Assembly: GCA_022822085.1 (NCBI GenBank) | Contig: JAJECK010000015.1 | Location: 25,782 to 89,781, forward strand | Length of the DNA stretch: 64,000 nucleotides | DNA from: Candidatus Poribacteria bacterium | Lineage (GTDB): Bacteria; Poribacteria; WGA-4E; WGA-3G | Direction: 5' to 3' | Part shown: piece by piece, positions 6,413 through 62,903 of the stretch | Numbering within the stretch: position 1 is the first letter of the stretch | How the letters are laid out: each line of letters starts with the position of its first letter | Notes under the pieces: model-generated | Database searches by the model: none | Told to the model about the DNA's origin: nothing | What the model saw: only the letters and a program-made list of their open reading frames with translations | Made by a program: the position numbers and the translations under genes

Positions 6413-6995
6413 GAATTCCTCACACCTAAAATTCGTTTCAATCCAGATTCCATCTCCGTTGGCTGTCCATTGCTTATCAACGTATAACGAGGTTATATAA
6501 TGGATTTTGGCAATCAGGTTTCCCTGTCAGTAGTCATACCAGTATATAATAACGTGAGTTTGATAATAGATATATGAACTTCATTTGTCCGAAATATAGC
6601 TCTCATAGACACGGAAGGTGCGGTTTCCTGACCACACCATTGATATATTAACATATCTCGCTACCCTCTTTAGTTCCATGGAGGACCTAAAACCCCATAC
6701 AAATTACTACCATTTAGCATTAACGGAACAATAAAGAACAGCGAAAATATCGAAAACAAAACAACCCTGTTCTTTATACAAAATTCACTTGACAGTCATA
6801 ACATTAAAGATATAAAATATAAGTAGCGTAATTTATAAGCATAGAATTACGGTGTCAAAGACCAACCTGCTCTGAACCTTTAAGATTACATAGACGAATT
6901 TGTTGACTAATGCACCAACTATGTAGAACCTCTTGAATGTTCGTGAGTGATGATTTAAAACACACCAAATATCCAAACAGAAGGAGAAAATTAAG

Positions 6996-7682
6996 ATGAA
7001 AAAGACATTTTACGCTCTTATCATACCCGCAATACTTACAATTCTGTTTACCCTTCCAGTAAATCTTGCTTTTTCACGTGCTTTTAACAATGATTTTGAA
7101 ACAGGTGACTTAACGGATTGGGAAAAAGAGGGTACAGCATTTGATTTCCAACCCACATGGGGCGACAACCCAACAGCACGCGGCAGAGGACAGCCTTCCC
7201 AACATCAAGGTGAATGGTGGCTCGGACTATTTGAAAAGTATCCGGGAGAAGACAAAGCAAAAGCTCTTGGTGTGAACCCAGGTGCCACACAAGGAGATGC
7301 ACCACAAGGCAAACTTACTTCAATTGAATTCAAAATAATCGGTGATTCCATGAATTTTCTCATCGGTGGTGGTAATCATCCTTGGGGAGGTAATACACCT
7401 TGTTGTGTCAACCTTGAAATTAACGGCGACGTAGAACGAACTGCAACCGGTAATGCCACTGAAACAATGAGTCGAAAAGAGTGGGATGTTTCCGACTTGA
7501 AAGGCCAAACCGCCAAACTTGTCGTTGTAGATCAAAACGGCGGTGGTTGGGGCCATCCAAACTTTGACGATGTACATCAAGCCGATGCAGACGGTGAAAA
7601 TATACCGTGGGATAGAGTCCTTGCCGTTGAAGCACAGGGGAAGTTAGCTGTGAGCTGGGCACAGATGAAAAAGTACTATTAG
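6996..7682 (+). CDS. Secreted protein carrying the conserved C-terminal KLxxxW..K tail
   Basis: An RBS (aaggagaaaattaag) precedes the ATG. It has a signal peptide (MKKTFYALIIPAILTILFTLPVNLAFS). It ends with ...VEAQGKLAVSWAQMKKYY, matching the tail shared by four other secreted proteins in the window. Confidence 0.6.
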   Translation: MKKTFYALIIPAILTILFTLPVNLAFSRAFNNDFETGDLTDWEKEGTAFDFQPTWGDNPTARGRGQPSQHQGEWWLGLFEKYPGEDKAKALGVNPGATQGDAPQGKLTSIEFKIIGDSMNFLIGGGNHPWGGNTPCCVNLEINGDVERTATGNATETMSRKEWDVSDLKGQTAKLVVVDQNGGGWGHPNFDDVHQADADGENIPWDRVLAVEAQGKLAVSWAQMKKYY

Positions 7683-7869
7683 GTGTTAGGTCATACTGTT
7701 ATTAACAACCATTATTACATTATATAATATAGTTTTTCAAAACAGAAGGAGATATTTCAGAGGAATAAATTCGCTTTTTCAATTATGATTTTTTTCCTCA
7801 TCGCTATCTTGTTCATTATGTCTGTTGACATCGCTTTTGCTCGAACATTTACTTGGTTGTAGTCTTAGT

Positions 7870-8382
7870 ATGCTCAGCGACGAAGGCAAGCGATGGATAC
7901 AAGATCAATTCACACATGAAAATAAGAAACTTGAAGAACGCGCTTCTCAGCTTACAAAAAAGAACACTGAACTTATAAAAGTCAATAGCGGTCTGAAGAA
8001 TGAGGATGATCTTCCTTTGCCACCCCAACAGATTCATAGTGAAGTCAAACCTGATAAGATTTTTCGTGTTGGAGATAAGCTTCCATCCTTTACTTTCAAT
8101 GATGTTACCGACTCGAGTATCAAAATGGCTATAGTCGGGCGCGACGCGACGTTCGGCTTCGGTTTCTTTGATGGAATATATTGGGTCGGCGGGATCCTGA
8201 CTGTGCAGGGTGTTAAGTATGGCCCCAGTGTAATAGCAATTTCAGATAAGAAGGCATGGATAGAACTAAAGGATGGAACTCGCTATGTCTGTCTAACTGA
8301 AGGAGGATGCATAATTCGTCAGGAAGATTATATCATCATTCGGGGGGACATAAAAGTTTCTTACAAAAATGGCAGTAAGTAG
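7870..8382 (+). CDS. Hypothetical protein
   Basis: ORF with a coiled-coil-like N-terminus. The ATG at 7870 (MLSDEGK) is preferred over the longer tracker start at 7825. No motif was recognised. Confidence 0.35.
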   Translation: MLSDEGKRWIQDQFTHENKKLEERASQLTKKNTELIKVNSGLKNEDDLPLPPQQIHSEVKPDKIFRVGDKLPSFTFNDVTDSSIKMAIVGRDATFGFGFFDGIYWVGGILTVQGVKYGPSVIAISDKKAWIELKDGTRYVCLTEGGCIIRQEDYIIIRGDIKVSYKNGSK

Positions 8383-8558
8383 GTTTTCACAATGGACTTA
8401 CCGCGATAAACGGACAGCTCAAAATTGAGTTGGATCAAATACGTTAAGCAAAAATCAAATCTCGATAACACGTTACCCTCCAAACCTCACCAAAGTTGCC
8501 ACCGATAAACCTGTCCGTGGCAACTTGATTTTTAACAGAGGTATTCAATGGTCGATAT

Positions 8559-8795
8559 TTATTCCGATAAGTTCAATTGCTTGTTTTGGATTTGCGGCAA
8601 ATAACGAAGTCCATAGGCTATTTCGGTCCATTCTGAAGTTCGTAACAAACTTATCACGGCATTGCGTAGTGCTGCCATGACTTGTGGAATGTTGCCACAT
8701 CGCACATGTGATGCGTCTTCACCAAATAACATATCTCGTGTCCGGAACAACTGCCAGTGAGCGGTCCTGAAAATGTCAAAACCTTTTTGTGATTG
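8559..8795 (-). pseudogene. IS4/ISAs1-type DDE transposase, C-terminal remnant only
   Basis: The minus-strand translation ...TAHWQLFRTRDMLFGEDASHVRCGNIPQVMAALRNAVISLLR matches the C-terminal HW...D..FGEDASR.R....N.A.LR..A.NLL signature of DDE_Tnp_1 transposases. Only about 78 residues are open before an upstream stop, and there are no catalytic-core ORFs. Confidence 0.5.
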
Positions 8796-8960
8796 TCAAT
8801 CGTCCTGCTACAAATTGCAATGTTAGTCAACTCAATCTACAACGGACCAAGTAGAGAAGTTTCAAGGATGAAGACCTTATTTCAATAGAAAATAAGAGGT
8901 GAATATTACTATTTTGTTATACAGGTTTATGCACATCCCTCAATTAAATCTAATACCCAA

Positions 8961-9048
8961 TGTCCGTTGGGTTGAGGGACGAAACCCAACATGGAGTGCT
9001 CTATAATGCGTAAAGATGTTGGGTTTCGCCCCTCAACCCAACCTACGA
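8961..9048. repeat. Hairpin-forming REP/MITE-like repeat (family CGTAGGTyGGGTwGAGG...CCTCwACCCrAC)
   Basis: It is an inverted repeat: gggttgagggacgaaacccaacat ... atgttgggtttcgcccctcaaccc. Other members are at 28440-28545, 44050-44140, 52560-52640 and 52650/52930-53015, with a half copy at 14748-14790. Confidence 0.7.
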
Positions 9049-9194
9049 AGATTTATCAAACTCACGTTCTATTTAGGTGATTGTATCTATAGTTGAAGTT
9101 TGTATACTTTTGCGAATGAGTTTAATAAATCCGTCCGTTTTTTCATGTGAATAGACTAATGCATAACTGATTATAGAAAATCTAATTTTATAAT

Positions 9195-14025: not shown

Positions 14026-14193
14026 AATTTACATTCATAGTATACTCCATATTCAATATCTTGTTGAACAAAGAATGGTGTGGTCTAATACCACACCATT
14101 TTACTATTAATCACGACTTGTGCTAAATAACCGTATGTAAAATATCATTTCACATAAGCAGGATTTTTGTCCGTGTTTTCATTTGTCCATAGG

Positions 14194-14690
14194 TTCTTTA
14201 GTCCCGTAGGGACGATATGTTTATAGTAGCACGTGCTATCCCTATGCTCTTAGTCCTGTCCGAAAATTAAAAAATAATTTAGGTCCTGTGGCGAGGTTAG
14301 GAAGAAATCAACGGGACCAATGCCATTTAGGCATTCCCCGCCTCGCCAGCAGGAGTACAACTGCCCTCACCCAGAAGGAAAAGATCATAAGTTAATCTTC
14401 ATCCAGTTTGCGCTCTTTGACGCACAAACTGGAAGTTTATGCTACAGACACACAAGGTTCCCCTCCTTCTGCTGGCGTGGTTTCCTAACCTCGCCACAGG
14501 ACCCGATTAAATTCTTAATCTTCATTAGAGACTATGTTTATAGCAAAACGTTGAACACAAGTTCTTTAGTCCCGTAGGGACGATATCTGTGTGCCAATGA
14601 AATAATTTTAATTAACATATCGTCCCTACGGGACTAAAGAGGTTTGAGTGACGTTTTTCTATAAACATATCGTCCCTACGGGACTGAAGA
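14194..14690. repeat. Cluster of four copies of a 30-bp interspersed repeat (CTTTAGTCCCGTmGGGACGATATGTTTATAG), including an inverted pair
   Basis: Copies lie at 14194-14226 and 14561-14590 in direct orientation, and at 14613-14640 and 14658-14690 in reverse complement. The same ~30-mer recurs at 29817, 33441, 44166/44213, 56316, 56606 and 62603/62651. The region also holds a copy of the tggcgaggttagga..cctcgcca palindrome (14290-14350, 14455-14500). Confidence 0.75.
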
Positions 14691-14827
14691 AGGACACTCA
14701 AAATCAAAATTCCTTAAGTTGACACCCGCTGAATGCCAAAAAGGCATTCATAGCGTTGATTTACGGGTTTCGTTCCTCAACCCAACGGACAAATTTGTTT
14801 TGTACAAAAACTTACATACCCCCATTT

Positions 14828-21822: not shown

Positions 21823-21885
21823 ACACTTGTGCCTTTTTGATTCCATATTAGAGACTAAGATCGTTTCAATAATTTAGAGGCGAGC

Positions 21886-23883
21886 ATGAAAACAACAATT
21901 CCCATAATCACATTTATTCTTGTATTAGTAGGACACGCTTCTCTTGTTTTTGCACAAGATAACACACAAGTTGGTCTACCTGATGGTGCTATTGCGCGAC
22001 TTGGTAAAGGCGGGATCAACATAATGCGATTCTCACCAGATGGCAGCAAACTGGCAGTGGGTACGGATGTCGGAGTGTGGCTTTACGATGTGTCAGATGG
22101 AAATGCAACTGCCCTGTTCACAGATAAACCTGGTCAGGTCAACGCACTTGCATTTTCAAGTGATGAAAAAATACTTGCAAGTGGTGGACACGGAAACCCA
22201 TTCATACAACTGTGGAGCTTGGAGAACGGTACTAAACATTCTACACTGTTTTTTAAAAGCGAATTTAGATATGTTGTTGCCTTGGGATTTATTGGTAATA
22301 CACTTATAAGTTATGATAATAGTGGGAGAATTATTTATTGGAATATAAGCAATGGTGATATTTTAACAGAATTGGAAAAGGTGAATCCAAACCAAGCAGT
22401 TACATTTTCACCTACTACTAATCTTATTGCTGTAGCAGATAATTTACACAAAATACATATATATGATACTTCCTTAAGTGATAAGCATATTGTGTTTCAT
22501 GATGATGGATTAGATGAATTAAAAAAGGATATTTTTGCCTTAGCAATTACATCAAATAACAAAAAACTTGTAAGTGGCAGTGAGGACAAAGCAATTAGAA
22601 TTTGGGATATTGAAAAAAGGAAACTAACAACTTCTCTTAATGTCCATAAATCCACAATCACTTCTGTTGCCATATCACCTGATGACAAAATCCTTGCAAG
22701 TGGAGATGCCAGCAAAGAAATCATCCTTTGGGATGTTGATAATCCTAAAGAACTTAGGACATTATTAGGACACAAAAACACCGTTACTGCATTAGCATTC
22801 TCACCTGATGGTGCTGGCAAATATAGTGGTTGTCTTGCAAGTGGTAGCCATGATGGTACGATCCGGTTTTGGAACCCTGACACAGGTGAGAAACTTGTTA
22901 CTTTTGCTACGGGACATGCCAAATGGATTAAAACTATCGCCTTTTCTGAGAACGGGTCAACACTTGTGAGTGCTAACATGACTGGGAATGCAGTTGTTTG
23001 GAGTTTGAATAGCTATCAAGAAATTGGTAGTTTTACAAATGGAGAAAGCGACTATGCGGCTACAGTTGGATTCACCTCTGATGCTAAGCATTTTGTCTGT
23101 CAGGGGTTAAACGGATGGCAGTTTACGTTTAAGCCTTACGGTTTTGGGTATACCTCAAAAGACGGTGAAAATTATGAAGCACTTCCCCTAAGAATGTGGG
23201 ACATAACCACTCGTGAAGAAGTACAAGGTCCTTGGAATGAAAATTCATGTGATATACTTACATTTTCTGCTGATAACAAAATACTTGCTATCTATGGATC
23301 AGATAATGTATTGGGATGGAACATTGATTCTGCAGAAGAATTGTTTGATCTATCAACTGAGGATATATGGTTCATTGAACACATGGTAATATCGTCTGAC
23401 AATAAATACCTTGCTGTGTATGAATCCTCTGAGAAACTGTATATATGGAATTTAGAAAAACCAGAGGATCCGCCTGTCCAAACTAAATCGGATATTGACT
23501 CGTTGGCATTCTCTCCAGATGGTAATAGTATAGCAATATTGAGGAGTGGGAATATTTTCCTTCATGATATAGAGTCGTTCCCAGATGGTGAACCTGAAGA
23601 AATTCTTACAGACCTACACGGTCATGTAGCAAGAATGATCTTTTCTCCCGATAGTAAAATCCTGATATGCGCTGGATTTTCTGGTGTTATATCAAAAATT
23701 AGTATAAAGTTGTTGGATATGGAAACAGGTCAAGAAATTGGAAACCTTTCAGGACACTCGGAACTGATAGAGACACTCGCATTTTCTCATGATGGGAAAA
23801 TACTTGCCAGTGGCAGTTTTGATGGGACAATATTGCTATGGGATTGGGAAAAAATATCTAAAAGACAAGAAATGGTCAAATAG
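21886..23883 (+). CDS. Secreted WD40-repeat beta-propeller protein (paralog 1)
   Basis: It has a signal peptide. Multiple WD40 units have LASGS.D..I..W motifs. The N-terminal QVGLPDGAIARLGKGGIN block is shared with paralogs at 24393 and 44359. Confidence 0.75.
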   Translation: MKTTIPIITFILVLVGHASLVFAQDNTQVGLPDGAIARLGKGGINIMRFSPDGSKLAVGTDVGVWLYDVSDGNATALFTDKPGQVNALAFSSDEKILASGGHGNPFIQLWSLENGTKHSTLFFKSEFRYVVALGFIGNTLISYDNSGRIIYWNISNGDILTELEKVNPNQAVTFSPTTNLIAVADNLHKIHIYDTSLSDKHIVFHDDGLDELKKDIFALAITSNNKKLVSGSEDKAIRIWDIEKRKLTTSLNVHKSTITSVAISPDDKILASGDASKEIILWDVDNPKELRTLLGHKNTVTALAFSPDGAGKYSGCLASGSHDGTIRFWNPDTGEKLVTFATGHAKWIKTIAFSENGSTLVSANMTGNAVVWSLNSYQEIGSFTNGESDYAATVGFTSDAKHFVCQGLNGWQFTFKPYGFGYTSKDGENYEALPLRMWDITTREEVQGPWNENSCDILTFSADNKILAIYGSDNVLGWNIDSAEELFDLSTEDIWFIEHMVISSDNKYLAVYESSEKLYIWNLEKPEDPPVQTKSDIDSLAFSPDGNSIAILRSGNIFLHDIESFPDGEPEEILTDLHGHVARMIFSPDSKILICAGFSGVISKISIKLLDMETGQEIGNLSGHSELIETLAFSHDGKILASGSFDGTILLWDWEKISKRQEMVK

Positions 23884-24039
23884 AAAGTCTCAATAGATAA
23901 TACATGGGTGTGTAAAGTTTTTGTCACTTATCTGTCTGAACCCGGATTATTGCCAAATCAAAGGTCCGCATCATGGCGTATGCTGCTTTAGGCATTCCCG
24001 GATTTTACCGATTGCTCGGCTTATATGCCTGGAGATGCC

Positions 24040-24215
24040 AAGTTGTTTTGCGTCTGGGCGATAGTCCGTCTTTGTCCCGTCCGCTTCCAGATTGCGATTT
24101 TTTGTACCGTAATCTTCCAGATTGTGCAGTAGTGTGTGCGCAAACTGGAAGTGGACGGGACAAATGTGTGCAAGTAATTATAGATTCCACTATAATGGAA
24201 GGTGACTGAGTTTCA
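24040..24215. repeat. Composite ~170-bp structured repeat element (copy A) with a long imperfect hairpin and a conserved 3' tail
   Basis: It contains gtcccgtccgcttccag...ctggaagtggacgggac, a ~17-bp stem with one mismatch. It also has cttccagattg x2 and the tail acaaatgtgtgcaagtaattatagattccactataa. Homologous copies are at 35925-36110 and 62640-62830. Confidence 0.65.
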
Positions 24216-24392
24216 TGTGAAGACTCATCTATTTATTGAAGGCCGACGTTAATAAAAATTTAAAGCGACTATTTCCTTACTTAGTAGGTTCCTGTTGGAT
24301 TTCAGCAAACATCTATTCCAAATAGATTGAACTCCTGCATCATACCATATAAAATATTAGTAACACATAACATTTCAAATAAAATATCAACC

Positions 24393-26402: not shown

Positions 26403-26408
26403 AAAGGC

Positions 26409-28439: not shown

Positions 28440-28545
28440 TCCAATAACCACGTAGGTTGGGTTGAGGAACGAAACCCAACATGGAGTGATCTAAAGTGAG
28501 TAAAGATGTTGGGTTCCGTTCCTCAACCCAACGGACACAGACTTA
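28440..28545. repeat. Hairpin-forming REP/MITE-like repeat (same family as 8961-9048) between selenoprotein genes 1 and 2
   Basis: The inverted repeat is acgtaggttgggttgaggaacgaaacccaacat...atgttgggttccgttcctcaacccaacggac. Confidence 0.7.
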
Positions 28546-28575
28546 TGTTTAGAATTATCAAACTCACATTAGGAG

Positions 28576-44049: not shown

Positions 44050-44240
44050 AGACTAAACTTGTAGGTCGGGTAGAGGCACGAAACCCGACACGTGATGATT
44101 ATGTCTATCATGTCGGGTTTCGTGCCTCTACCCGACGGACTTATTTAGTCAGGCTATCCACTATTTCTTTAGTCCTGTCCGGACGATATGTTAATATTAT
44201 TTCATCGGCACACAGATATCGTCCGGACGGGACTAAAGAC
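44050..44240. repeat. REP/MITE-like hairpin repeat (44050-44140) followed by an inverted pair of the 30-bp interspersed repeat (44166-44196 and 44213-44240)
   Basis: The hairpin is gtaggtcgggtagaggcacgaaacccgacacg...catgtcgggtttcgtgcctctacccgacggac. The inverted pair is ctttagtcctgtccggacgatatgtt / cagatatcgtccggacgggactaaag. Confidence 0.7.
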
Positions 44241-44358
44241 ACGGACAATATACAGAAATTTAACATTAACGTAATAGTACAAAACCGTAGAAAATATTGA
44301 AAACAAAAAACCCTGTTAGAAATGGTATAAGCATTGCCAGCTGTGTCGTACTCATGCC

Positions 44359-46435: not shown

Positions 46436-47059
46436 TTATTTCCTTGTTGAGTTTAGTAGATGCTCATAGATAGATTGCGCATGAATATAGTCCTCTGGTG
46501 TGTTGATATTGAAGAAGGAAAGTCCATCGGGATCGTACAATTTCCATTTCTCTGGATGGATAGACAAGACATTTGCATGTTCCTGCAACGCATGGACGCG
46601 TAATTCAGATTGCTGCAACATCTCCTCAATTATCGGAATGCATTGTTTAGAATACACTGTACATAGGGTTTGGAGGGTTTTCTGTGTATCGCTTACCTTT
46701 TTGGTTGTAGGCATTACTGCATCATAGTTTCCTAATACAGAAACAAGATAATTGAGTAGATTTGGGTTCAAAAATGGACTATCGCAACCGACACAGATTA
46801 CCGTTTGATGTGATGCGTTTTTCAAACCAGAATGAATGCCCCCTAATGTGCCTACATTCTGTATAATATCGTGATGCATTTCAATATCCAGATGTGCATA
46901 TTCATCTGGCTTATTTGTGATAAGGAGCAGTTCATCAGCGATTGACTTCATGCCCTTGATGACATGACCGATGAGTGTGTCGCTTCCCAGACGCAGAAAA
47001 GCCTTATTTTGTCCCATCCGACGGCTTTTTCCGCCTGCTAAGATTACTCCTGTTACCAT
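46436..47059 (-). CDS. mobA: Molybdenum cofactor guanylyltransferase MobA
   Basis: The N-terminus MVTGVILAGGKSRRMGQNKAFL is the canonical MobA nucleotide-binding motif. It is 207 aa. Confidence 0.75.
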   Translation of the reverse strand: MVTGVILAGGKSRRMGQNKAFLRLGSDTLIGHVIKGMKSIADELLLITNKPDEYAHLDIEMHHDIIQNVGTLGGIHSGLKNASHQTVICVGCDSPFLNPNLLNYLVSVLGNYDAVMPTTKKVSDTQKTLQTLCTVYSKQCIPIIEEMLQQSELRVHALQEHANVLSIHPEKWKLYDPDGLSFFNINTPEDYIHAQSIYEHLLNSTRK

Positions 47060-48456
47060 TTCATTGGGTCTCTATTGTTTTCAACAAGCCTCGGGCCAAA
47101 TCGGCTTTCCATCGTTGCGCGTAATTCTTGAACCAATTCCTTATTAGATTCAGCAATATTGTGCAATTCTTCTGGATCGTCTTCAAGATTATACAGTTCA
47201 ATGAAACCTTCTCGGTTTTCTATTAATTTATGTGTATGTGTCCGAATACAAGTGAAGTTTATCAGTCTGCTGACCGCCTCACTTCGGTGTGTATCTGTTT
47301 CTCCGTGAAGTACTGGTGCAATTGATTTTGCATCAATATTTTCCAACACTGGAACACCCGCCATATCACAAATAGTCGGATTTAAGTCATTTAATTCAAC
47401 CAATGTATTTGAGATGCGATGTGGTTCTATTCTTGGTCCTGCTACAATAAGAGGGACTCTTAGCGATGCTTCATACGCCAAACTCTTTGTGTATAGTCCG
47501 TGGTCACCGAGCATTTCACCGTGGTCGCTTGAATAGATAATATAGGTGTTTTCAAGCATGCCGCGTTCTTCCAATGCATTTAGCATGTTGCCGATTTGAC
47601 TGTCTATGAGTTCAGTGGCAGCGCAATACTGTTGTCGTGTGATTTTAATTTCTTCAGGACTTATATTGACGACACGTTTTTTTACCCAATTTGGTTTTCC
47701 GTCCATATTGTCTTTGATGGGTTCTGGCATATCGGACTGACGGTACTTGTCACCATATTCCGTAGGTGGATCGAAGGGATCGTGCGGTCCAACAAAACTG
47801 ACAAACATATGCCAAGGAAAATCATCAGGGACAGTTTGAATGAATTCGGTTGCGCGTCTGCCGATATATGAATCTTCAAAATCCTCTGTTGGCAGTACAG
47901 AATCGTAAGAACCGTTTTTTATCCATCCACCGGATGAACTTCTATTCCGGTAATCTTGATGAAATTTTTCTAACAGCCCCTTTTCCTGTAGATAATGTGT
48001 ATAGGGACCGATGGGTGTTGGTGATTTGCCGGCATGCATTTTTCCTTCACACTCTTCTGGATGTGTGAATCCCCAACCATACGCGCGAGGTCGGTCTCCG
48101 TAACGACCGTTGTATCCGTCAGGTTTTGCAAGGTCCAGTTTTCCTACACATCCAACACGATACCCGTAATTGCGAAGTTGTTGGTAGTAGGTTGGCACGG
48201 TGGCAGGTAGGAAACTTCCATTTGCGAGCGATCCGAGACGCGAAGGTTGGACACCTGAAGCTAAACCGATTCTGGATGGTGCACAGACGGGCGCGTTCAC
48301 GGTGCAATTTGGAAAATTTACACCCATTTCTGTTAATCTGCGTAGGTTCGGTGTGTTAAGTGCATTGGGAGCATTTTCATCTGTTTCTACATAGTCATAT
48401 CTGTGTTGATCAGACATTATGAATAGTACGTTTGGTCTATCTGTTTTTCTGTTCAT
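47053..48456 (-). CDS. Sulfatase (formylglycine-dependent arylsulfatase family)
   Basis: It has the N-terminal PNVLFIMSDQHRYD and the C-x-P-x-R formylglycine motif in NAPVCAPSRIGLASG. It is 467 aa. Its start overlaps the mobA stop by 7 nt. Confidence 0.8.
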   Translation of the reverse strand: MNRKTDRPNVLFIMSDQHRYDYVETDENAPNALNTPNLRRLTEMGVNFPNCTVNAPVCAPSRIGLASGVQPSRLGSLANGSFLPATVPTYYQQLRNYGYRVGCVGKLDLAKPDGYNGRYGDRPRAYGWGFTHPEECEGKMHAGKSPTPIGPYTHYLQEKGLLEKFHQDYRNRSSSGGWIKNGSYDSVLPTEDFEDSYIGRRATEFIQTVPDDFPWHMFVSFVGPHDPFDPPTEYGDKYRQSDMPEPIKDNMDGKPNWVKKRVVNISPEEIKITRQQYCAATELIDSQIGNMLNALEERGMLENTYIIYSSDHGEMLGDHGLYTKSLAYEASLRVPLIVAGPRIEPHRISNTLVELNDLNPTICDMAGVPVLENIDAKSIAPVLHGETDTHRSEAVSRLINFTCIRTHTHKLIENREGFIELYNLEDDPEELHNIAESNKELVQELRATMESRFGPRLVENNRDPMKW

Positions 48457-48575
48457 ATTCCTCCGTTCTTTTCCGTTGTATGGAAAATTATAGGTGTTAG
48501 AAACTAATGCAGCGGTTTTTCTACCTTAAAGCGATTATATCATAGTTTTGTTGTCCGGTCAATATATTGAAAACA

Positions 48576-48621
48576 AAATAACCCTGAATAATTTGACCGA
48601 AACTTGTGTTTATGCTAAAAT
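48576..48621 (+). promoter_or_regulatory. Sigma70-like promoter with the upstream AAATAACCCTG element
   Basis: The sequence is aaataaccctg-6 nt-TTGACC-17 nt-TAAAAT. It lies about 120 nt upstream of the TPR gene at 48746. Confidence 0.5.
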
Positions 48622-48745: not shown

Positions 48746-49885
48746 ATGAAAGAGAAACAATCTGGTGAGTCTATACAAGAATCTGAAGAACAAATAGACG
48801 CAGAGACAGACGGTGCAGATGAGAAACCGGATATATATGCATCAATACAACATAGATTTAATGATTTACGGAGTGAATATCTTGATGCCCGGTCAAAATC
48901 TATCAACAGATGGTTAGCATTTATATGCATTGTGCTACTATTTTTTACTATACTCATTCCGATTATAACAGGTATTGCTGCGTATTTTATCTATGATCGG
49001 TTTGGCGACCTCCAGGAACAGATGTTGATACATGTGAAAACGGCAGAAAAACATTCATCGGATTCTGCTAAAAATGCCGCTGAAGCTGCGAAATTCCTTA
49101 AGGAAATTAAGGGACATAATAGGACAGTCAAGGGAATAGTAACTAAATTAACGAGTAAGGATTTCACAAATCCGAATAAAGTAGAGATTTTACAATCTAC
49201 TATAGAAGATATATTAAGAAATCCAGCAATTTCTCTTGAAGACAAGGCAATCATTGAAGCGTATAGACTGCAGAGAGCAGGGAATATAGCAGAGGCTATC
49301 GAGAAATGGCGTTCTATCGCTAACACTGCTAAAGGTGTAAATAATGAATTGGTTGCCCGTGCGTTCTTTTCAATGGGTTATCTCCATTCGCAGCAAGACG
49401 AAAAGGATCAGGCTATTTCCGCTTTTGACAAAGCAATTGAGATGATGCCAACTTTTGCGGATGCTTATACCAGTCGTGGTGTTGTAAGGAGTTCACTCGG
49501 TAATCTTGAGGAGGCTATTGCTGACCACAGTGAAGCAATACGCTTGAATCCGAATTTGGTTGAGGCGTATATCAATCGTGGCACGGCTAAACGCTCTCTA
49601 AATCAGCATGAGGCAGCGATTTCAGATTTTGATGAAGCGATACGATTGGATGCAAATTCGGCTGTGGCTTGGACATTACGCGGTGTGTCTAAGGGTGCAC
49701 TTGGACGACACCAGGAGGCAGTTGCTGACCATAATGAGGCAATTCGACTCAAACCCAATTATGTTGATGCCTATATCAATCGTGGATCAGCGAAACGTGC
49801 GCTTGGTGACCATGAGGGTGGGAAGAAGGATATGGATAAGGCTTTGGATTTGGCTCAGGAGTTGAAGGTGAGTGGCGGAGAGTGA
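48746..49885 (+). CDS. TPR-repeat protein with an N-terminal transmembrane anchor
   Basis: The TM is WLAFICIVLLFFTILIPIITGIAAYFI. At least five canonical TPR units follow (AYTSRGVVRSSLGNLEEAIADHSEAIRLNPN; AYINRGTAKRSLNQHEAAISDFDEAIRLDAN; ...). Confidence 0.6.
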   Translation: MKEKQSGESIQESEEQIDAETDGADEKPDIYASIQHRFNDLRSEYLDARSKSINRWLAFICIVLLFFTILIPIITGIAAYFIYDRFGDLQEQMLIHVKTAEKHSSDSAKNAAEAAKFLKEIKGHNRTVKGIVTKLTSKDFTNPNKVEILQSTIEDILRNPAISLEDKAIIEAYRLQRAGNIAEAIEKWRSIANTAKGVNNELVARAFFSMGYLHSQQDEKDQAISAFDKAIEMMPTFADAYTSRGVVRSSLGNLEEAIADHSEAIRLNPNLVEAYINRGTAKRSLNQHEAAISDFDEAIRLDANSAVAWTLRGVSKGALGRHQEAVADHNEAIRLKPNYVDAYINRGSAKRALGDHEGGKKDMDKALDLAQELKVSGGE

Positions 49886-51612: not shown

Positions 51613-51699
51613 AATAGAGAATCAACAAGTGAGTAGGCATTATAAATTAGCAAGATGTTGCTATTTTCGTGAATTATAGTAAAAACTACAATTACCTGG

Positions 51700-51940
51700 A
51701 CAGTGGCGAGGTTAGGAAACCTCGCCAGCGTGAATGTGCAAGGACCTGGACAGTGGCGAGGTTAGGAAACCTCGCCAGCGTGAGTGTGCTGGCGAGGTTA
51801 GGAAGAAATCAACGGTATGAATCATGGAGCATGCCATACGCGCATGCTTCTTTAGGCATTCCCCGCCTCGCCAGCGAGCGTGTGCAATTACCTGGACAGT
51901 GGCGAGGTTAGGAAACCTCGCCAGCGTTATGGTGTGGGGA
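51700..51940. repeat. Cluster of palindromic hairpin repeats (TGGCGAGGTTAGGAAACCTCGCCA core). The 41-bp unit occurs three times with an embedded related element.
   Basis: The unit acctggacagtggcgaggttaggaaacctcgccagcgtgartgtgca is at 51703, 51744 and 51888. An inserted segment (ctggcgaggttaggaagaaatcaacgg...gcattccccgcctcgccagc) is also at 14290-14350. Each unit has a 10-bp perfect stem and a 4-nt loop. Confidence 0.7.
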
Positions 51941-52415: not shown

Positions 52416-52559
52416 CGTCTATCCTCCCGTTTCTTTCCAATATCCTAACAGGTTTCTCTTTTGCATTCAACGTAAAAAGTTGGACATACTTTCGCGCCTT
52501 CAGCCTTGACAAGGTTATTTAGTTTTAAGTATTCCTGTTGATGTGTGTTACTTAGAGTT

Positions 52560-53015
52560 TATCTTGTCCGTTGAGTTCGTGAACCCCAACACATATCGAT
52601 AAATGTTGGGTTTCGTTCCTCAACCTAACCTACGATACTAATATAACGAAAGGGGCGTAGGTCGGGTAGAGCGTGAGCGAAACCTATAAGCGTCAATTTA
52701 GTGAGTAAAGTGCATCTGGAACACCTGTCGCCCCTCTGGGCTTTGGCCACACACAGGCATCATCTGCTATACACCTGTCGCCTCTCTGGGGCTATCTTCA
52801 ATCATATATCAGCACCAGCGGTGCGAAAGGTATATAGAATTCACAGGCCAAAAGAAACCAAGCACCAGCGGTGCGAAAGGGTGTCCGATAAAATTGGATT
52901 TCCAACTATAAAACAAGAGACAGGCTCTTAAATTGATGCCTATGGGTAGAGCGTGAGCGAAACCTGACATTCACGGCACGTGTCGGGTTTCGCTCACGCT
53001 CTACCCGACCTACGA
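52560..53015. repeat. MITE-like composite bounded by REP/MITE hairpin-repeat arms, with internal direct repeats
   Basis: There is a complete hairpin at 52560-52640 and arms cgtaggtcgggtagagcgtgagcgaaacct (52650) ... aggtttcgctcacgctctacccgacctacg (53015). The interior holds direct repeats cacctgtcgccyctctggg x2 and agcaccagcggtgcgaaagg x2. The tracker ORF 52701..52931 is probably non-coding. Confidence 0.55.
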
Positions 53016-53058
53016 TATAACTACCAGTAATAATCATAAACTGAATATTCTTAAAACT

Positions 53059-53115
53059 AAATAACCCTGCGTCCTTGAAGAAGCAGTTGAAAATTTCAGC
53101 GTTTTACGGTATACT
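53059..53115 (+). promoter_or_regulatory. Sigma70-like promoter with the upstream AAATAACCCTG element
   Basis: The sequence is aaataaccctg ... TTGAAA-17 nt-TATACT. This places the TSS near 53122, so the TPR gene likely starts at 53165. Confidence 0.45.
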
Positions 53116-53164: not shown

Positions 53165-53893
53165 ATGGCACAACAAAGACGAAGGAAAAATCGAACAAAA
53201 ACCAAAGCGGTATACCTGAAACGCGGCGATATGTATAACAGGCAACGGGAGTTTACTAAAGCGAAAGCAGCTTTTTTGAAAGTGCTCGCGATAGATGCAG
53301 ATGACGCGGACGCGCATCACAATATCGGCATAACCTACATGGCACTTGAGGCACCTGAAACAGCGATGTCCCACTTCAAGAAGGCACTCGCTCTGAATCC
53401 TAAAATGTCTGAAGTGTATTACAAACTGGGGTACGTTTACGTAGAATTGAAAAGATTTGAAGATGCAATGGAGATGGGCACTGCCGCACTCGCAGCTGAT
53501 AGAGATGAAGAAAAGGAAAAGGCACACTACGTTCTCGGACGCGCCTACATCGGACTGGACGCTTACGAAAAGGCACTCTATCATTTTCAGCAGGCACGCG
53601 AGCTTGGACTGGATTCCATAGAGCTTGATTTCTATATCGGGAACACTTACGCTTTCTTGGGCGAATATGATCTGGCATTAGAGCATTTGCAGCAGTCACT
53701 TACCCAGAATCCAGAAATTCCCTTGGTACACAATAGCATTGCATTGGTTTATATGAGGCAGGGTAAGTTTGAAGAGGCAGAAGAATATATTACTGACGCG
53801 CTTTTGCTCGATCCTAGCTGTGAGGCCACTCACGAAGTTTTGGAACTGTTTGAAAAAGAGCAAAAGGCACAAAAACAGGAGGAAAATACTTGA
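53165..53893 (+). CDS. TPR-repeat protein
   Basis: The basic N-terminus (MAQQRRRKNRTK) is followed by at least six TPR units (AHHNIGITYMALEAPETAMSHFKKALALNPKMSEVYYKLGYVY...). The start was moved to the ATG at 53165, downstream of the predicted promoter. Confidence 0.55.
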   Translation: MAQQRRRKNRTKTKAVYLKRGDMYNRQREFTKAKAAFLKVLAIDADDADAHHNIGITYMALEAPETAMSHFKKALALNPKMSEVYYKLGYVYVELKRFEDAMEMGTAALAADRDEEKEKAHYVLGRAYIGLDAYEKALYHFQQARELGLDSIELDFYIGNTYAFLGEYDLALEHLQQSLTQNPEIPLVHNSIALVYMRQGKFEEAEEYITDALLLDPSCEATHEVLELFEKEQKAQKQEENT

Positions 53894-56017: not shown

Positions 56018-56695
56018 CATTTCCTTATAGTTCAGGACGGACGCATTCCGCATGATATAGTAAAACTTATACCATTTCTATTTAAGAAACTGTCATAAAG
56101 GCTTCCTTAAAGTCCCACTGATAAGGGGAATTTAGGAGGTTCTTCCAATTAGCGATGAGACTTTATTATTTAGAAATGGTATTACAATTAATGGTGCACT
56201 ACTGTAGCGCACACTGTTAGGTTGCGTCGTTTAATACAATACACAAACTAAATGAAGATTAAGAAATTAAATCGGTCCTTTTCATTATACATATTCGGTA
56301 CATTTCAAGTGCTCTTCAGTCGCGTCCAGACGATATGTTTATAGAATACCGCTTGACAACACAAACATAAACTCATAGCAGTTTGTGTACGCGTTGCTTC
56401 GCATAAAGGGCATATTTTTTATTTAATTCTTTCTTAATCGTCGCTGTTCCCCTTAAAACTAGTCAGAATAGTATATCAAAAATGAAACAATGTTGCAAAA
56501 AGAATTATCCAATTAATCACGAGTTGTGCAAAATAACTAATCGCAATATATATACTTACATAAACAGAATGCCTTGTCCATATTTCACTTTTGTTGGCAC
56601 CTTCTTTAGTCCCGTCCGGACGATATGTTTATAGCAGAATAATGCTAATAGTCATAAACAAATTAATACAAAACCCTTACACACCCATTTTTTAA

Positions 56696-56737: not shown

Positions 56738-56970
56738 CATAATCCCAAACGCGATTCGTCACTGCTCAAAAAAATCAGTCCAAATTGCTTATCAACCCAG
56801 ACAGTGACTTGATCAGCAGCGTGTTCATTCAAAAAATCGTGTTTGGTGTAGTGTTCATGCGGATTCTTCGGCAATTTTTCAAAATTTTTATCCGAAAAAA
56901 TCCCGAAATTCTGTCGCGTTTGGTTTTGGCAATTTTAGCCCGCACTGTGACTGGGTTCGCAGGGGGTGCT

Positions 56971-57428
56971 GTTCGGAAACACCTTCCCGTTTGAAGGGAA
57001 TTGAAACTTGACTACTCCGTCGTCTCCCGGTCCACCAACTGCTACTGTTCGGAAACACCTTCCCGTTTGAAGGGAATTGAAACAGGTCGAAAGTAATGAT
57101 CAGTTCGTCGTCATCGGTTAGGACGTTCGGAAACACCTTCCCGTTTGAAGGGAATTGAAACATAATGCCTTTTGAAGATTTTGTTGATGAAGATTTTGAG
57201 TTCGGAAACACTTTCCGTTTGAAGGGAATTGAAACAAAAAAAGGGTGGAAGATTGGAAGGATTCTGAAAGTCCTTACTGTTTGAAGGGAACCGAAGCAAA
57301 AAGGGTGGAAGGGTGGAAGATTAGAAGGAGTTCGGAAACCCCTTACTGTTTGAAGGGAATTGCAACTCTTCCAATCTTCCATCCTTCTTTCGTTCTGAAA
57401 GTCCATACTGTTTGAAGGGAACCGAAAC
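56971..57428 (+). CRISPR. CRISPR array: 37-bp repeat GTTCGGAAACACCTTCCCGTTTGAAGGGAATTGAAAC, four well-conserved plus three degenerate repeats
   Basis: Repeats are at 56971-57007, 57047-57083, 57125-57161 and 57199-57234 (the last has a 1-nt deletion), with unique spacers of 39, 41 and 37 bp. Degenerate repeats follow at ~57262-57297, 57330-57366 and ~57391-57428. The repeat ends in ATTGAAAC, the typical Cas6-type 8-nt 5' handle. It contains the internal palindrome cccgtttgaaggg. No cas genes lie within the window. Confidence 0.8.
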
Positions 57429-57496
57429 TCTTCCACCCTTCCACCCTTCTTCCACTGTCAGTTCAAAGTTTTTCCACAATAATAAGAGGCGGCTCT

Positions 57497-61547: not shown

Positions 61548-61626
61548 GTTAACCCGAGTTTGCTAATAAAAAACAGTAACCACTGTCCGTTAGGAACCCA
61601 CCTACAATATAAAATATGGAGAATTT

Positions 61627-62553
61627 ATGGAAAACGCTCTTGAGAAACAACGAACATCAATTTCTGAACTGCGTCCGCAGATCGAAAACCTTATCCAGTC
61701 GAGTATTTCTGCTAATACGAAAAAGGCATATCAACGCGCTTTACAAGGGATCGAAAATTGGCTGCCCGCAGGTGAGCCGTTGTCGGATCACTTGCTGGCT
61801 GCGTATTTGACAGAACTGCACGAGAAAGGAAAATCCCCATCAACCATCTCGCAGGTTGTGGCTGCAGTGAAATGGCAGATGAAACATCAACCCGGAGCCG
61901 ACTTTCCGTTGCCGACTACCTACGCGACTTTGGCGGGTATCCGGCGTGATGGTAAGGCACGAGGACGTGGACAGGTGGACGGTATGATTTGGCAAGATGT
62001 AGAACGGGTCTGTATTCTGGCAGAAACCGATGGCACACTCGCGGGGTTACGAGATTCCGCTATGATACGGTTGATGAGCGATTGCCTGCTGCGTATCAGT
62101 GAAGTGGTTGCAGTGAACGCTGGCGATTTGAAGGAGCGGACGCTGTCGGTACAGGCTTCAAAATCTGACCAGGAGGGGCGCGGGGAAAGTCTTTATGTGT
62201 GTGATAGAACTCGCGATATCTTGACGAAATATAAAGAGATGGGCAGTATTCAGGAAGGCCCGATGTTCCGACAGATTCGCCGTGGTGGACATATTCAGGA
62301 GAACAGACTGCACGATCATTCTGCTCGGAGAATCGTCCAGAAACGTGCATCGGATGCGGGTGTAGTCGGGTTTATCTCTGGGCATTCGTTGCGTGTTGGT
62401 TCTGCAATGTCGCTGGCTTCCGCTGGTGCGACTGTAGTTGATATGCAGGTTGCGGGACGGTGGAAGTCGTCTCAGATGCCGGCGCATTATGCGAAGGCGG
62501 AATTGGCAGAACGCGGTGCTATTGCGCGGTTTAAGGATGGAAAAATGCAATGA
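61627..62553 (+). CDS. Tyrosine-type site-specific recombinase (phage-integrase family)
   Basis: It has a SAM-like N-terminal domain. The C-terminal catalytic region has ...GLRDSAMIRLMSDCLLRISEVVAV... and HSLRVGSAMSLASAGATVVDMQVAGRWKSSQMPAHYAK, with the conserved HxxR and a C-terminal Tyr. The RBS is tggagaatttatg. Confidence 0.75.
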   Translation: MENALEKQRTSISELRPQIENLIQSSISANTKKAYQRALQGIENWLPAGEPLSDHLLAAYLTELHEKGKSPSTISQVVAAVKWQMKHQPGADFPLPTTYATLAGIRRDGKARGRGQVDGMIWQDVERVCILAETDGTLAGLRDSAMIRLMSDCLLRISEVVAVNAGDLKERTLSVQASKSDQEGRGESLYVCDRTRDILTKYKEMGSIQEGPMFRQIRRGGHIQENRLHDHSARRIVQKRASDAGVVGFISGHSLRVGSAMSLASAGATVVDMQVAGRWKSSQMPAHYAKAELAERGAIARFKDGKMQ

Positions 62554-62594
62554 ATGTGTCAACCGTGCAATGTTAATAGAAATGTGATGAACCA

Positions 62595-62830
62595 ACCATC
62601 CTTAGGCCCGTCCGGACGATATGTTTATAGATCGCGCATGTACACGGTCCCTTTAGTCCCGTCCGGACGATATGTTATAGTATAATCCAAAAATATATAC
62701 ACACTTTTGATTCGTTAAACCTAAACCGTAGGACTGTGCTGTACCATAAACTTCCAGTTTGTGCAGTAGTGTGTGTGCAAACTGGAAAGTTCACGTTACA
62801 TAGGTGTGCAATTAATTATAGATTCCACTA
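62595..62830. repeat. Two copies of the 30-bp interspersed repeat followed by the composite ~170-bp structured element (copy C)
   Basis: The repeat copies ccttaggcccgtccggacgatatgtttatag and cctttagtcccgtccggacgatatgttatag are at 62603 and 62651. The element follows at 62682-62830 and aligns with 35940-36110. Confidence 0.7.
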
Positions 62831-62847
62831 TAAAACTAAATACCCTG

Positions 62848-62903
62848 CTAAACGTTGAATACACTTGCAATTGTAAGATATTTCTGATAAAATACACAAA
62901 AAG
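62848..62903 (+). promoter_or_regulatory. Sigma70-like promoter with the upstream AAATACCCTG element
   Basis: The sequence is aaataccctg ... TTGCAA-17 nt-TAAAAT. It lies about 25 nt upstream of an RBS (aaggatggaaag) and the ATG at 62926. Confidence 0.45.

Follow-up and report, generated by a model that had tools for sequence, protein, structure and literature searches.

Insertion sequences of the ISAs1 family have inverted repeats of 14-22 bp that start with CAGGG and direct repeats of about 10 bp (PMC11946415; PMC6305408). The Poribacteria element described here resembles the known members (ISAs1 of Aeromonas salmonicida, ISEc1/H-repeat, IS1358 and ISArsp11) in its length of about 1.3 kb, its single DDE transposase, its 18-bp terminal inverted repeats (TIRs) beginning with CAGGG and its 9-10-bp target-site duplications. 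Unlike them, its lineage is Poribacteria-specific among the 18-mer matches listed below, has massively amplified MITE derivatives and shows a one-sided association with a site 8-9 bp ahead of -35 hexamers; no description of such a -35-phased association was found for the ISAs1 family in the searchable literature.

Like Correia of Neisseria, RUP, ERIC and Nezha, these MITEs are short, non-coding, TIR-bounded, multi-copy and intergenic, are mobilised by a resident transposase supplied in trans, and frequently lie beside promoters. Correia insertions duplicate TA, and their own ends contain or generate promoter hexamers, whereas the predicted Poribacteria promoters lie wholly outside the element, predate it and stand at a fixed distance from its end. 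IS5 at glpFK, flhDC and bgl of E. coli also occupies a defined position upstream of a sigma-70 promoter and turns an A-tract-rich end towards it, but the IS5 cases are few selected loci much farther upstream (about -100 and beyond), in contrast to hundreds of sites per genome at -45 to -54 of predicted promoters in Poribacteria. Ty1, Ty3, Tf1 and TRE5-A share the narrow window upstream of transcription start regions, a 'safe haven' off coding sequence; they differ in their LTR or non-LTR retroelement chemistry and in tethering to transcription factors, so that the resemblance is one of behaviour and not of family membership. Comparable promoter homing is not known to us from any bacterial DDE transposon. 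UP elements and class I activator sites likewise present A-rich DNA upstream of -35 with two spacings one helical turn apart, whereas the A-rich part of the TIR lies at about -59 to -71 instead of -40 to -60, is unconserved at orthologs and is bounded by duplications.

The recurring motif and the ends of an ISAs1-family element

The window is the whole 64-kb stretch of Poribacteria DNA analysed here. An initial annotation had reported a recurring motif upstream of several of its promoters, and the recurrence is genuine: AAAYAACCCTG has five exact matches (6759-6769 +, 33358-33368 -, 33576-33586 +, 48576-48586 + and 53059-53069 +) against 0.12 expected from dinucleotide-preserving shuffles of the window (n=100), none of which reached five. 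The conserved block, AAAAC(T/A)AAA(T/C)AACCCTG, is 17-18 nt and thus longer than first given, and with variants included the window holds eight copies. Three of these had been overlooked (33358-33374, -; 52510-52526, -, with one mismatch; 44299-44315, +, a variant), and the + copy reported near 62848 is present, although as a variant with a 1-nt deletion (AAAACTAAATA-CCCTG, 62832-62847) rather than an exact match.

Judged from the DNA around its copies, the motif is the TIR of a Poribacteria ISAs1-family insertion sequence and its MITEs. The proposal that it was an UP-like element or the site of a dedicated co-regulating activator gives way to this identity, given that inverted copies enclose a transposase gene and are bordered by 9-bp duplications. 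From its outer end the TIR reads 5'-CAGGGTTATTTAGTTTTA (17-18 bp) and would be the end bound and cleaved by the transposase. The 18-mer AAAACTAAATAACCCTGC matched more than 115 stretches among 185,579 species genomes; among the 80 matches listed, 75 were from Candidatus Poribacteria MAGs (at least 25 assemblies) and the five found elsewhere are apparently due to chance. Five full-length elements of 1315-1316 bp carry outward-facing copies at both ends and a single 387-aa ORF (L005 4762-6077, L034 2856-4170, L066 6583-7898, L090 1372-2686 and L109 5921-7235). Pfam assigned DDE_Tnp_1_assoc and DDE_Tnp_1 to the three copies searched (L034, L090 and L005), and the L034 ORF scored 234 bits against NCBIfam NF033564 (ISAs1 family transposase; cut-off 70). 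Both ends of the L034 element have the 18 bp of CAGGGTTATTTAGTTTTA in common, and duplications flank L034 (AGGAATTGG), L090 (CTTGTGGTG) and L109 (GCGGGCAGG). Transposase type, a length within about 1.2-1.5 kb with a single ORF, TIRs starting with CAGGG and direct repeats of 8-10 bp all agree with the ISAs1 family.

The derivatives span 120-900 bp, with interiors made up mostly of REP-like hairpins. Their classification as MITEs follows from elements of 122-560 bp that have the same TIRs and 9-bp duplications, lack the transposase ORF and belong to several sequence families; elements of 122-142 bp with the motif at both ends show 9-10-bp duplications (L067 CTGATTCCGT, L064 AATCAAACTG, L021 CATCTATAG). 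Among 76 outward-facing pairs, duplications matched at 9/9 positions in 25, at 8/9 in six and at 7/9 in seven, and several duplications measured 10 bp. In 173 of 204 copies the DNA inward of the motif is repeat DNA of family type and the DNA outward of it is unique. A REP/BIME identity was considered and rejected, since the 17-nt motif is not palindromic and the GC-rich REP-like hairpins are internal MITE cargo. From these comparisons, the identical 17-18 nt stand upstream of unrelated genes because the elements moved there, with 9 bp of target duplicated at each insertion; empty orthologous sites, one with a single copy of the duplicated 9-mer, are indirect evidence of this movement.

Elements and predicted promoters in the window

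All promoters considered here are consensus predictions in an uncultivated phylum. The features of the window are as follows.

6753-6769, + strand: TIR copy AAAACAAAACAACCCTG, right-end remnant of an ISAs1-type element (sequence comparison)
6789-6794 and 6813-6818, + strand: TTGACA and TAAAAT, predicted promoter of gene 6996-7682 (228-aa protein)
8568-8771, - strand: relic of an ISAs1-family transposase gene, C-terminal ~72 aa (tblastn E = 8e-13)
33311-33339, - strand: predicted LamG promoter (-35 TTGACG 33334-33339, 17-nt spacer, -10 TATACT 33311-33316)
33358-33586: 229-bp MITE-like element with outward-facing TIRs 33358-33374 (-) and 33570-33586 (+)
33595-33623, + strand: predicted GFO/IDH/MocA promoter (TTGATA 33595-33600, 17-nt spacer, CATAAT 33618-33623)
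44299-44315, + strand: degenerate TIR copy GAAAACAAAAAACCCTG in a convergent intergenic region
48557-48562, - strand: -35 of the predicted promoter of gene 47053-48456
48570-48586, + strand: solo TIR remnant AAAACAAAATAACCCTG, wedged between two divergent predicted promoters
48593-48598 and 48616-48621, + strand: TTGACC and TAAAAT, predicted promoter of TPR gene 48746-49885
52510-53069: 560-bp composite MITE with outward-facing TIRs 52510-52526 (-, AAAACTAAATAACCTTG) and 53053-53069 (+)
53087-53115, + strand: predicted promoter of TPR gene 53165-53893 (TTGAAA 53087-53092, 17-nt spacer, TATACT 53110-53115)
62832-62847, + strand: TIR tip with the 1-nt deletion
62865-62870 and 62888-62893, + strand: TTGCAA and TAAAAT, predicted LarA-like promoter, 17 nt past the TIR tip

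Positions 6731-6769 show 77% resemblance to the right end of a full-length element and are followed by a target-site copy of 9 nt at 6770-6778 (TTCTTTATA). The relic at 8568-8771, with 44% identity to a Poribacteria ISAs1 transposase, is the window's only transposase trace. The two MITE examples of the window are 33358-33586 and 52510-53069. The first occupies the divergent spacer between the LamG gene (32441-33235, -) and the GFO/IDH/MocA gene (33692-34864, +) and is probably old, as no target-site duplication is recognisable; the LamG -35 begins 18 nt past one TIR end and the GFO/IDH/MocA promoter 8 nt past the other. The second has an interior of REP-like hairpins and a degenerate 9-bp duplication (CAGCCTTGA / CGTCCTTGA, 7/9 match), and the promoter of TPR gene 53165-53893 lies 17 nt past its TIR end. 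A different 165-nt repeat (62671-62834) adjoins the tip at 62832-62847 inwardly, and the LarA-like gene starts at 62917 or 62926. Two REP-like hairpins precede the copy at 44299-44315.

Six of the eight copies are followed by a sigma-70-like predicted promoter, TTGaca-17/18-TAnAAT, with gaps from CCCTG to -35 of 19, 18, 8, 6, 17 and 17 nt in positional order, in agreement with the 6-22 nt given in the initial annotation; no promoter is in phase with the copies at 44299-44315 and 52510-52526. A position-weight-matrix scan gave 14 window genes a strong predicted promoter, five of which have the motif, and the sixth motif-bearing promoter, that of the GFO/IDH/MocA gene, is weaker and scores under the cut-off.

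Phasing to promoters across Poribacteria DNA

In 915 kb of Poribacteria DNA with 216 copies (190 ends in the TTG count), the association between motif and promoter proved non-random, at a fixed distance and far stronger than the window alone could show. TTG begins 16-19 nt past CCCTG at 87 of 190 ends (46%), a good -10 accompanies 63% of the phased TTGs against 2% in the control, and a co-directional gene follows 70 of 83 phased TTGs. Strong predicted promoters within 160 nt outward number 55, and 40 of them begin 16-19 nt after CCCTG; the inward control gave no promoter peak. Of all ends, 21% have a strong promoter in phase, whereas random intergenic sites would be expected to have one in 0.28% of cases (p ~1e-61). 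A minor spacing class at 6-10 nt lies about one helical turn closer, and TTG counts are back at background by offsets 20-22. T/T/G at +18 to +20 and G at +39/40 also stand out in composition by position, for which no promoter model is needed. Copies aimed at a co-directional gene start prevail by 125 to 52. Since about half of the ends lack a promoter in phase and 29% point at a convergent gene end, targeting of any kind would be a preference rather than a rule. The phasing is also one-sided: of 36 elements whose duplications are intact, 21 have one phased end and three have two, or 15 and none when a good -10 is required.

A fixed position relative to -35, with its sharp 17-18 nt peak and minor 6-10 nt class, and a highly conserved sequence are what a genuine cis-regulatory site of a regulon would show, whether UP element or dedicated activator site, independent of mobile DNA. 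We regard this as most improbable, as the inverted copies enclose a transposase gene and have target-site duplications, many copies are upstream of no gene, more than half are not before an in-phase promoter, and the downstream genes are functionally unrelated (LamG, GFO/IDH/MocA, TPR, LarA-like and one unknown). The motif is moreover identical across more than 25 species while the adjoining promoter DNA diverges.

Three window promoters were compared with those of close relatives, and in all three cases the promoter is retained there and the motif is missing. The GFO/IDH/MocA orthologs L118, L119 and L120 (91-94% aa identity) retain TTGAAA-17-cATAAT, and the LarA-like orthologs L200, L201 and L202 (84-88%) retain TTGCAT-17-TAGAAT, in each case without a TIR; LarA-like orthologs L198 and L199 (91-92%) have the TIR exactly 17 nt upstream, as in the window. 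The orthologs of gene 6996 in L203 and L206 also keep the promoter without a TIR, and L206 has a single copy of ATCTTTACA in place of the window's post-TIR 9-mer TTCTTTATA. The motif thus does not represent a conserved activator site that would define a regulon, and by this comparison the adjoining promoters are older host promoters that predate the insertions. An UP element, which is A/T-rich and spans about -40 to -60, was rejected on position as well: with CCCTG ending at about -54, the main class has its A-rich block at about -59 to -71, beyond the classical location, and the 17-18 nt between CCCTG and -35 are unconserved target DNA. Only the minor class would put the A-rich block in the UP window. 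A TIR end may nevertheless modulate an adjacent promoter secondarily.

Proposed target choice and its alternatives

It is highly probable that TIR identity combined with insertion relative to promoters best explains the observations as a whole. As to the cause of the phasing, preferential insertion of the transposon 8-9 bp upstream of -35 boxes is the most likely reading, and we consider it probable. The transposase would pick its target relative to the promoter, with 8-9 bp left between the 9-bp duplication and the -35 hexamer downstream of it; CCCTG would then end 17-18 nt before TTGACA, at about -54, and a minor class of insertions would fall one helical turn nearer the promoter (6-10 nt).

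In fixed insertions, from which the phasing is read, target preference and position-dependent selection are not fully separable, and two selective accounts have to be weighed. Under the first, insertion is roughly random and the A-rich TIR tip (about -54 to -71) serves as an upstream promoter element, either by bending the DNA or by docking a protein, transposase or host factor, in contact with RNA polymerase; selection retains phased copies, and promoters could be tuned around them. Such co-option is compatible with the TIR identity and competes with targeted insertion only over the cause of the phasing. It is in agreement with spacing classes (6-10 and 16-19 nt) about one helical turn apart, with the persistence of the solo TIR 48570-48586 between divergent promoters after loss of the rest of the element, and with the retention in the window, L198 and L199 of the TIR tip 17 nt from the same promoter where all inward DNA has been replaced. 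IS5 reportedly activates glpFK and flhDC from upstream via a bent A-tract/IHF region at its end, which speaks in favour of co-option. We nonetheless judge co-option rather unlikely as the cause. Elements with perfect duplications, which are therefore young, are already phased as often as older ones (24/36 vs 26/40), and random intergenic insertion would be in phase only 0.28% of the time, so that selection would have to purge more than 99% of insertions, whereas many neutral-looking copies survive in convergent spacers. Furthermore, orthologous promoters without a TIR work or at least are conserved, and the A-rich part of the main class lies outside the classical UP-element window.

The second account invokes only filtering after random insertion: elements would be harmful elsewhere near a gene, and the nearest tolerated upstream position would be over-represented. 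The intergenic location of 91% of the 216 copies and the near absence of strong promoters less than 6 nt from an element end would fit. A tolerance boundary, however, predicts a step with a broad tail, and the observed peak is 2 nt wide, with 31 strong promoters at 17-18 nt against nine in all past 19 nt (at most one per offset), which makes filtering alone improbable.

Returning to targeted insertion, we lean, by a narrower measure than for the insertion preference itself, towards repeated homing of the ISAs1 lineage and its MITEs 8-9 bp upstream of sigma-70 -35 boxes, by reading promoter DNA or contacting RNA polymerase. Candidate routes of recognition are direct reading of -35 or upstream DNA shape and contact with promoter-bound RNA polymerase; Pfam found only the standard ISAs1 domains in the transposase and no additional one to account for promoter recognition. 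On its promoter side each insertion would restore an identical 9 bp, so that a site could be hit again. Newer elements would push older, decaying ones outward, and repeated hits would yield repeat-packed intergenic regions with the freshest TIR nearest the promoter.

Several loci bear on such re-use. A MITE with a perfect duplication occupies, in L033, the exact junction of an older decayed TIR, and its 9 bp are those also used by the element in the ortholog L030; head-to-head pairs 8-9 nt apart occur in L104, L078 and L086. Position-by-position composition gives a C-N7-G target signature at +1 and +9 past CCCTG, in which the C at +1 is inflated because the 18-mer used to collect the loci includes that C. 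In the ortholog pairs L037/L071 and window/L198 the 9 nt adjoining the TIR diverge more than the DNA beyond, so a simple 'same target, same duplication' model is insufficient.

These results remove a false lead, as there is no hidden regulon behind the motif. They reveal instead a previously undescribed and highly successful ISAs1/MITE lineage that shapes most intergenic regions of the uncultivated sponge-symbiont phylum Poribacteria, with a density of eight element ends per 64 kb in the window. That the phasing to pre-existing promoters is one-sided and sharp to 2 nt suggests a bacterial cut-and-paste-type transposase whose target choice is directed by promoters, a behaviour for which, to our knowledge, there is no described precedent. 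If true, promoter homing would be a prokaryotic counterpart of the promoter targeting of Ty1, Ty3 and Tf1 and would explain why, in these genomes, the same upstream sequence accompanies a third or more of strong promoters. Should the ends modulate transcription as well, promoter architecture would be correlated genome-wide because of them, and motif-discovery pipelines would mistake this for a regulon, as the initial annotation did.

Motif copies in the window and in Poribacteria

The 64-kb window holds five exact copies of the block AAAYAACCCTG. Dinucleotide-preserving shuffles predict 0.12, and in 100 of them the count never reached five. The shorter AACCCTG is enriched only about two-fold, so the signal resides in the longer block, and the flanks of the window copies define a conserved unit of 17-18 nt, AAAAC(T/A)AAA(T/C)AACCCTG. 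The initial annotation reported AAA(T/C)AACCCTG 6-22 nt upstream of -35 hexamers. This recurrence is real, since six of the eight copies counted here are followed by a near-consensus, sigma-70-type predicted promoter (spacer 17-18 nt), and gaps of 19, 18, 8, 6, 17 and 17 nt between CCCTG and the -35 agree with the distance described. The site listed near 62848 does hold a copy, in the form of a one-base-deletion variant at 62832-62847. Three copies had been missed:

Additional motif copies in the window
33358-33374, minus strand, motif copy
52510-52526, minus strand, motif copy with one mismatch
44299-44315, variant motif copy

The surrounding genes are typical of Poribacteria (LamG, GFO/IDH/MocA, xylose-isomerase-like TIM barrel, TPR and WD40 proteins). 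Neither Rfam, at gathering thresholds, nor tRNA scans matched a known RNA in the window, and the motif is thus not part of one.

Scanning the 18-mer AAAACTAAATAACCCTGC against one genome per bacterial or archaeal species returned more than 115 matching stretches. Among the 80 matches listed, 75 fall in Candidatus Poribacteria MAGs (25 or more assemblies) and five are single occurrences in unrelated taxa, which is about the chance level for an 18-mer; within these matches the motif therefore occurs in multiple copies and is specific to the phylum. It is identical between species despite diverged surrounding DNA, in comparison loci (L-numbers below) that were ascertained by a perfect 18-mer match.

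The motif as an ISAs1-family terminal inverted repeat

Alignment of 120 copies with their flanks revealed that the DNA beyond CCCTG (outward) is unique to each locus and that the opposite, inward side belongs to a handful of repeat families, into which 173 of 204 copies cluster. Many copies are arranged as outward-facing inverted pairs. Five pairs lie 1315-1316 bp apart and each encloses a single 387-aa ORF; the three scanned with Pfam (L034, L090 and L005) contain DDE_Tnp_1_assoc and DDE_Tnp_1 domains, and that of L034 scores 234 bits (cut-off 70) against the NCBIfam model NF033564, 'ISAs1 family transposase'. The two ends of the L034 insertion sequence (IS) have CAGGGTTATTTAGTTTTA in common, its right end corresponding to repeat family F3 and its left end to F4. 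ISAs1 elements measure about 1.3 kb; their inverted repeats (14-22 bp) start with CAGGG and their direct repeats span about 10 bp (PMC11946415), ISArsp11 being one example (PMC6305408). Given that size, inverted repeats, direct repeats and transposase fit these defining features, the motif is the terminal inverted repeat (TIR) of an ISAs1-family IS and of its derived MITEs; the Poribacteria element agrees with both classes in every criterion that could be tested. No intact transposase was found within the 64-kb window, which retains a relic at 8568-8771 (44% identity over the C-terminal 72 aa, E = 8e-13).

The short pairs, 122-142 bp long, represent classical MITEs with the motif at each end and direct target repeats at their flanks. 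Across 76 adjacent outward-facing pairs, a 9-bp duplication is perfect in 25, matches at 8/9 positions in six and at 7/9 in seven; a few outward-facing pairs display 10-bp duplications. Two elements in the window retain both ends.

Direct repeats flanking MITEs, and two-ended elements of the window
L064, flanking repeat AATCAAACTG
L067, flanking repeat CTGATTCCGT
L073, flanking repeat ACCGCGCTG
L021, flanking repeat CATCTATAG
L022, flanking repeat CCAAATTAA
33358-33586, two-ended element, 229 bp, duplication no longer recognisable
52510-53069, two-ended element, 560 bp, duplication 7/9

At positions 211-711 of L023 (OZ250160.1) a 122-bp MITE occurs four times in tandem with a 126-nt period and 4-nt separators (CTTC), an arrangement that suggests a tandem array and not separate insertion events. 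In genome CAXXUA01 a composite repeat, about 780-880 bp long and bounded by 14-bp inverted ends of its own (CAATACCTTCGCCA ... TGGCGAAGGTATTG), is present at L038 2660-3470, L061 6610-7420, L096 3680-4400 and L107 3920-4700. It holds a complete ISAs1-type MITE pair together with hairpins, indicating a non-autonomous element mobilised within another.

Other readings of the repeat DNA were discarded. Directly inward of the motif lie AT-rich palindromes (TGAATATTCA, TCAATATATTGA) that were considered as sites of a dimeric factor; these, like an IHF-like WATCAA site, vary by MITE family and are not general. An inward-facing promoter in family F1 (TTGATG-16-TATATC) lacks conservation between families. 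IS200/IS605-RAYT ends and TnpB omega-RNA-like 'scaffold plus guide' structures, suggested by the GTAG-headed hairpins and the constant gap of 17-18 nt, were both rejected because of the true inverted terminal repeats, the 9-bp duplications and the DDE transposase.

Further repeats and genes of the window

Several other repeats were noticed. REP-like hairpins built on CTTTAGTCCCGTCCGGACGATAT...ATATCGTCCGGACGGGACTAAAG contribute at least eight half-sites, all intergenic, and are also frequent within MITEs of other Poribacteria genomes (e.g. L038, L030). The hairpins of a second, GC-rich family, GT(A/T)GG(T/G)(C/T)GGGT(A/T)GAGG..CGAAACCC(G/A)AC, are often GTAG-headed like REPs and form the core of the MITE family ending at 53069. 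A repeat of about 165 nt terminates in GTGCAAGTAATTATAGATTCCACTATAAT, readable as a predicted promoter (-35, 17 nt, -10); its copies stand directly upstream of the genes at 24393, 36141 and 62926, the last one adjoining and truncating the ISAs1 TIR at 62834, and it may be a separate promoter-carrying mobile repeat.

Other repeats in the window
14183-14690, 29802-29844, 44154-44239, 56301-56633 and 62587-62673, REP-like hairpins
8966-9056, 14760-14792, 28456-28546, 44060-44142, 52603-52690 and 52940-53022, GC-rich hairpins
24103-24196 (partial), 35940-36104 and 62671-62834, 165-nt repeat
51670-51934, 69-nt unit in three copies, each with the hairpin GGCGAGGTTAGGAAACCTCGCC, which is found again within MITEs at other Poribacteria loci (e.g. 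L199, L030)
56971-57451, CRISPR-like array, seven copies of a repeat of about 37 nt (GTTCGGAAACACCTTCCCGTTTGAAGGGAATTGAAAC and a diverged variant), start-to-start spacing 62-78 nt

The ORF called across the CRISPR-like array (56888-57436) is probably spurious, and Pfam gave no cas match in the scanned neighbouring ORFs. Two adjacent DarT-domain (ssDNA thymidine ADP-ribosyltransferase) genes at 37527-39451, the second fused to a Macro domain, make up a DarT/DarG-like toxin-antitoxin or defence pair in which the DarT-Macro fusion is unusual. A gene for a WD40/beta-propeller protein, about 2 kb long, is duplicated in tandem (21885-23906 and 24392-26425, 78-87% nucleotide identity), and a further WD40 gene (690 aa) lies at 44359-46431. 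On the minus strand, at 28576-31271, a CarboxypepD_reg-domain gene followed by a 100-aa AhpC/Redoxin-like gene occurs at least twice, a local cassette duplication; an additional Redoxin-like gene is located at 27768-28067.

Predicted promoters at the element ends

In the window, the TIR is carried by five of the 14 genes with a strong predicted promoter and by the weaker GFO promoter. The relation was quantified in the window together with 115 other loci, 915 kb of Poribacteria DNA in total with 216 motif copies, 91% of them intergenic, with 125 oriented toward a co-directional gene start and 52 toward a convergent gene end. When the first 160 nt outward of every end were searched with a simple -35/-10 weight matrix, 55 strong promoters were predicted. 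Measured from the G of CCCTG, 40 of them begin at 16-19 nt (mode 17-18) and another six at 6-10 nt; an identical inward search, run as control, gave no peak. An in-phase strong promoter adjoins 40 of 191 ends, compared with a probability of 0.0028 at a random intergenic position (p about 1e-61). Position-by-position base composition, which is independent of any promoter model, displays T/T/G at +18/+19/+20 and G at +39/+40, the latter being what would be the TG of an extended -10. Positions +1 and +9 show a C-N7-G signature of the kind that a 9-bp staggered cut in a weakly palindromic target should leave. Under a relaxed criterion, 87 of 190 ends have a phased TTG (starting 16-19 nt outward), over a background of about four per offset. 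A good -10 at 16-18-nt spacing follows 63% of these TTGs against 2% of TTGs inside genes, and a co-directional gene follows 70 of 83, which argues that the phased sites are real gene promoters, as predicted by consensus, with nearly half of the element ends adjoining one in phase.

Three window promoters were compared with orthologous loci. For the GFO/IDH/MocA gene (33692-34864), orthologs with 91-94% protein identity and syntenic downstream genes (L118, L119 and L120) retain TTGAAA-17-(c)ATAAT and have unrelated DNA at the position of the TIR. For the LarA-like gene (62926 onwards), two orthologs (L198 and L199, 91-92%) share with the window a TIR exactly 17 nt upstream of TTGCAA-17-TAAAAT; in three others (L200, L201 and L202, 84-88%) the promoter is conserved (TTGCCT or TTGCAT, 17-nt spacer, TAGAAT) without the TIR. 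The gene at 6996-7682 has orthologs (L203, 96%; L206, 82%) that retain a TTGACA promoter without the TIR, and L206 presents a single ATCTTTACA, the unduplicated target, exactly in place of TTCTTTATA, the stretch directly after CCCTG in the window. In each of the three comparisons the promoter predates the insertion and persists without the motif, so that the motif cannot be an activator site on which these promoters depend, nor the marker of a regulon. The proposal of an UP-like element or of a dedicated activator site for co-regulation therefore fails on orthologous-promoter conservation and also on position (main class).

Since the duplication measures 9 bp, insertion took place 8-9 bp upstream of the -35 hexamer. 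Elements with an intact duplication, presumably young, are no less frequently phased than the others: 24 of 36 bear a phased TTG at one or both ends (one end in 21, both in three), against 26 of 40 without such a duplication; when a good -10 is also required, the 36 young elements give 15 and zero, respectively. A palindromic target, CAA-N8-[9 bp]-N8-TTG, was rejected as the source of the TTG peak, since the phasing is one-sided and occurs together with a -10 and a gene. A peak this sharp speaks against a mere 'tolerated zone', and phasing already in young copies against slow post-insertion evolution. The same site is struck repeatedly: in L033 a MITE flanked by a perfect duplication lies exactly where an older, decayed TIR has its outer edge, at the same 9 bp as the element of the orthologous L030 locus, and head-to-head elements share an 8-9-nt spacer at L104, L078 and L086. 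In the ortholog pairs L037/L071 and window/L198, the 9 nt beside the TIR differ more than the DNA beyond, which a simple model of one shared target and duplication does not account for. Each insertion would recreate a copy of the target on the promoter side and leave the site available; such re-use would explain why the divergent intergenic regions 33358-33586 and 52510-53069 are full of repeat DNA bracketed by outward TIRs.

We moderately favour a promoter-directed target choice by the transposase, which might recognise the shape of the -35 and upstream DNA or contact bound RNA polymerase; its domains are only the standard ISAs1 ones. A less probable alternative is selection, or that the A-rich TIR tip was co-opted as a promoter module on the upstream side; this fits the two spacing classes one helical turn apart, the persistence of a solo TIR (48570-48586) between two divergent promoters, and the retention of the tip in the window, L198 and L199 where everything inward has been replaced. 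IS5 activates glpFK and flhDC, a partial precedent for such co-option.

The searchable literature contained nothing relevant on the motif sequence or Poribacteria intergenic repeats, and no precedent in work on ISAs1 MITEs and target preference; neither this element nor Poribacteria MITEs nor promoter-phased ISAs1 insertion was found described there. The element is a previously undescribed representative of the known ISAs1 family, and its one-sided, 2-nt-sharp phasing to predicted sigma-70 promoters, not previously known from any bacterial DDE transposon, has its closest behavioural analogues in the eukaryotic Ty1, Ty3 and Tf1. The association of motif and promoter is stronger than the initial annotation could see; a transposon-end explanation replaces its regulon, and the apparent promoter homing is what stays of real interest.
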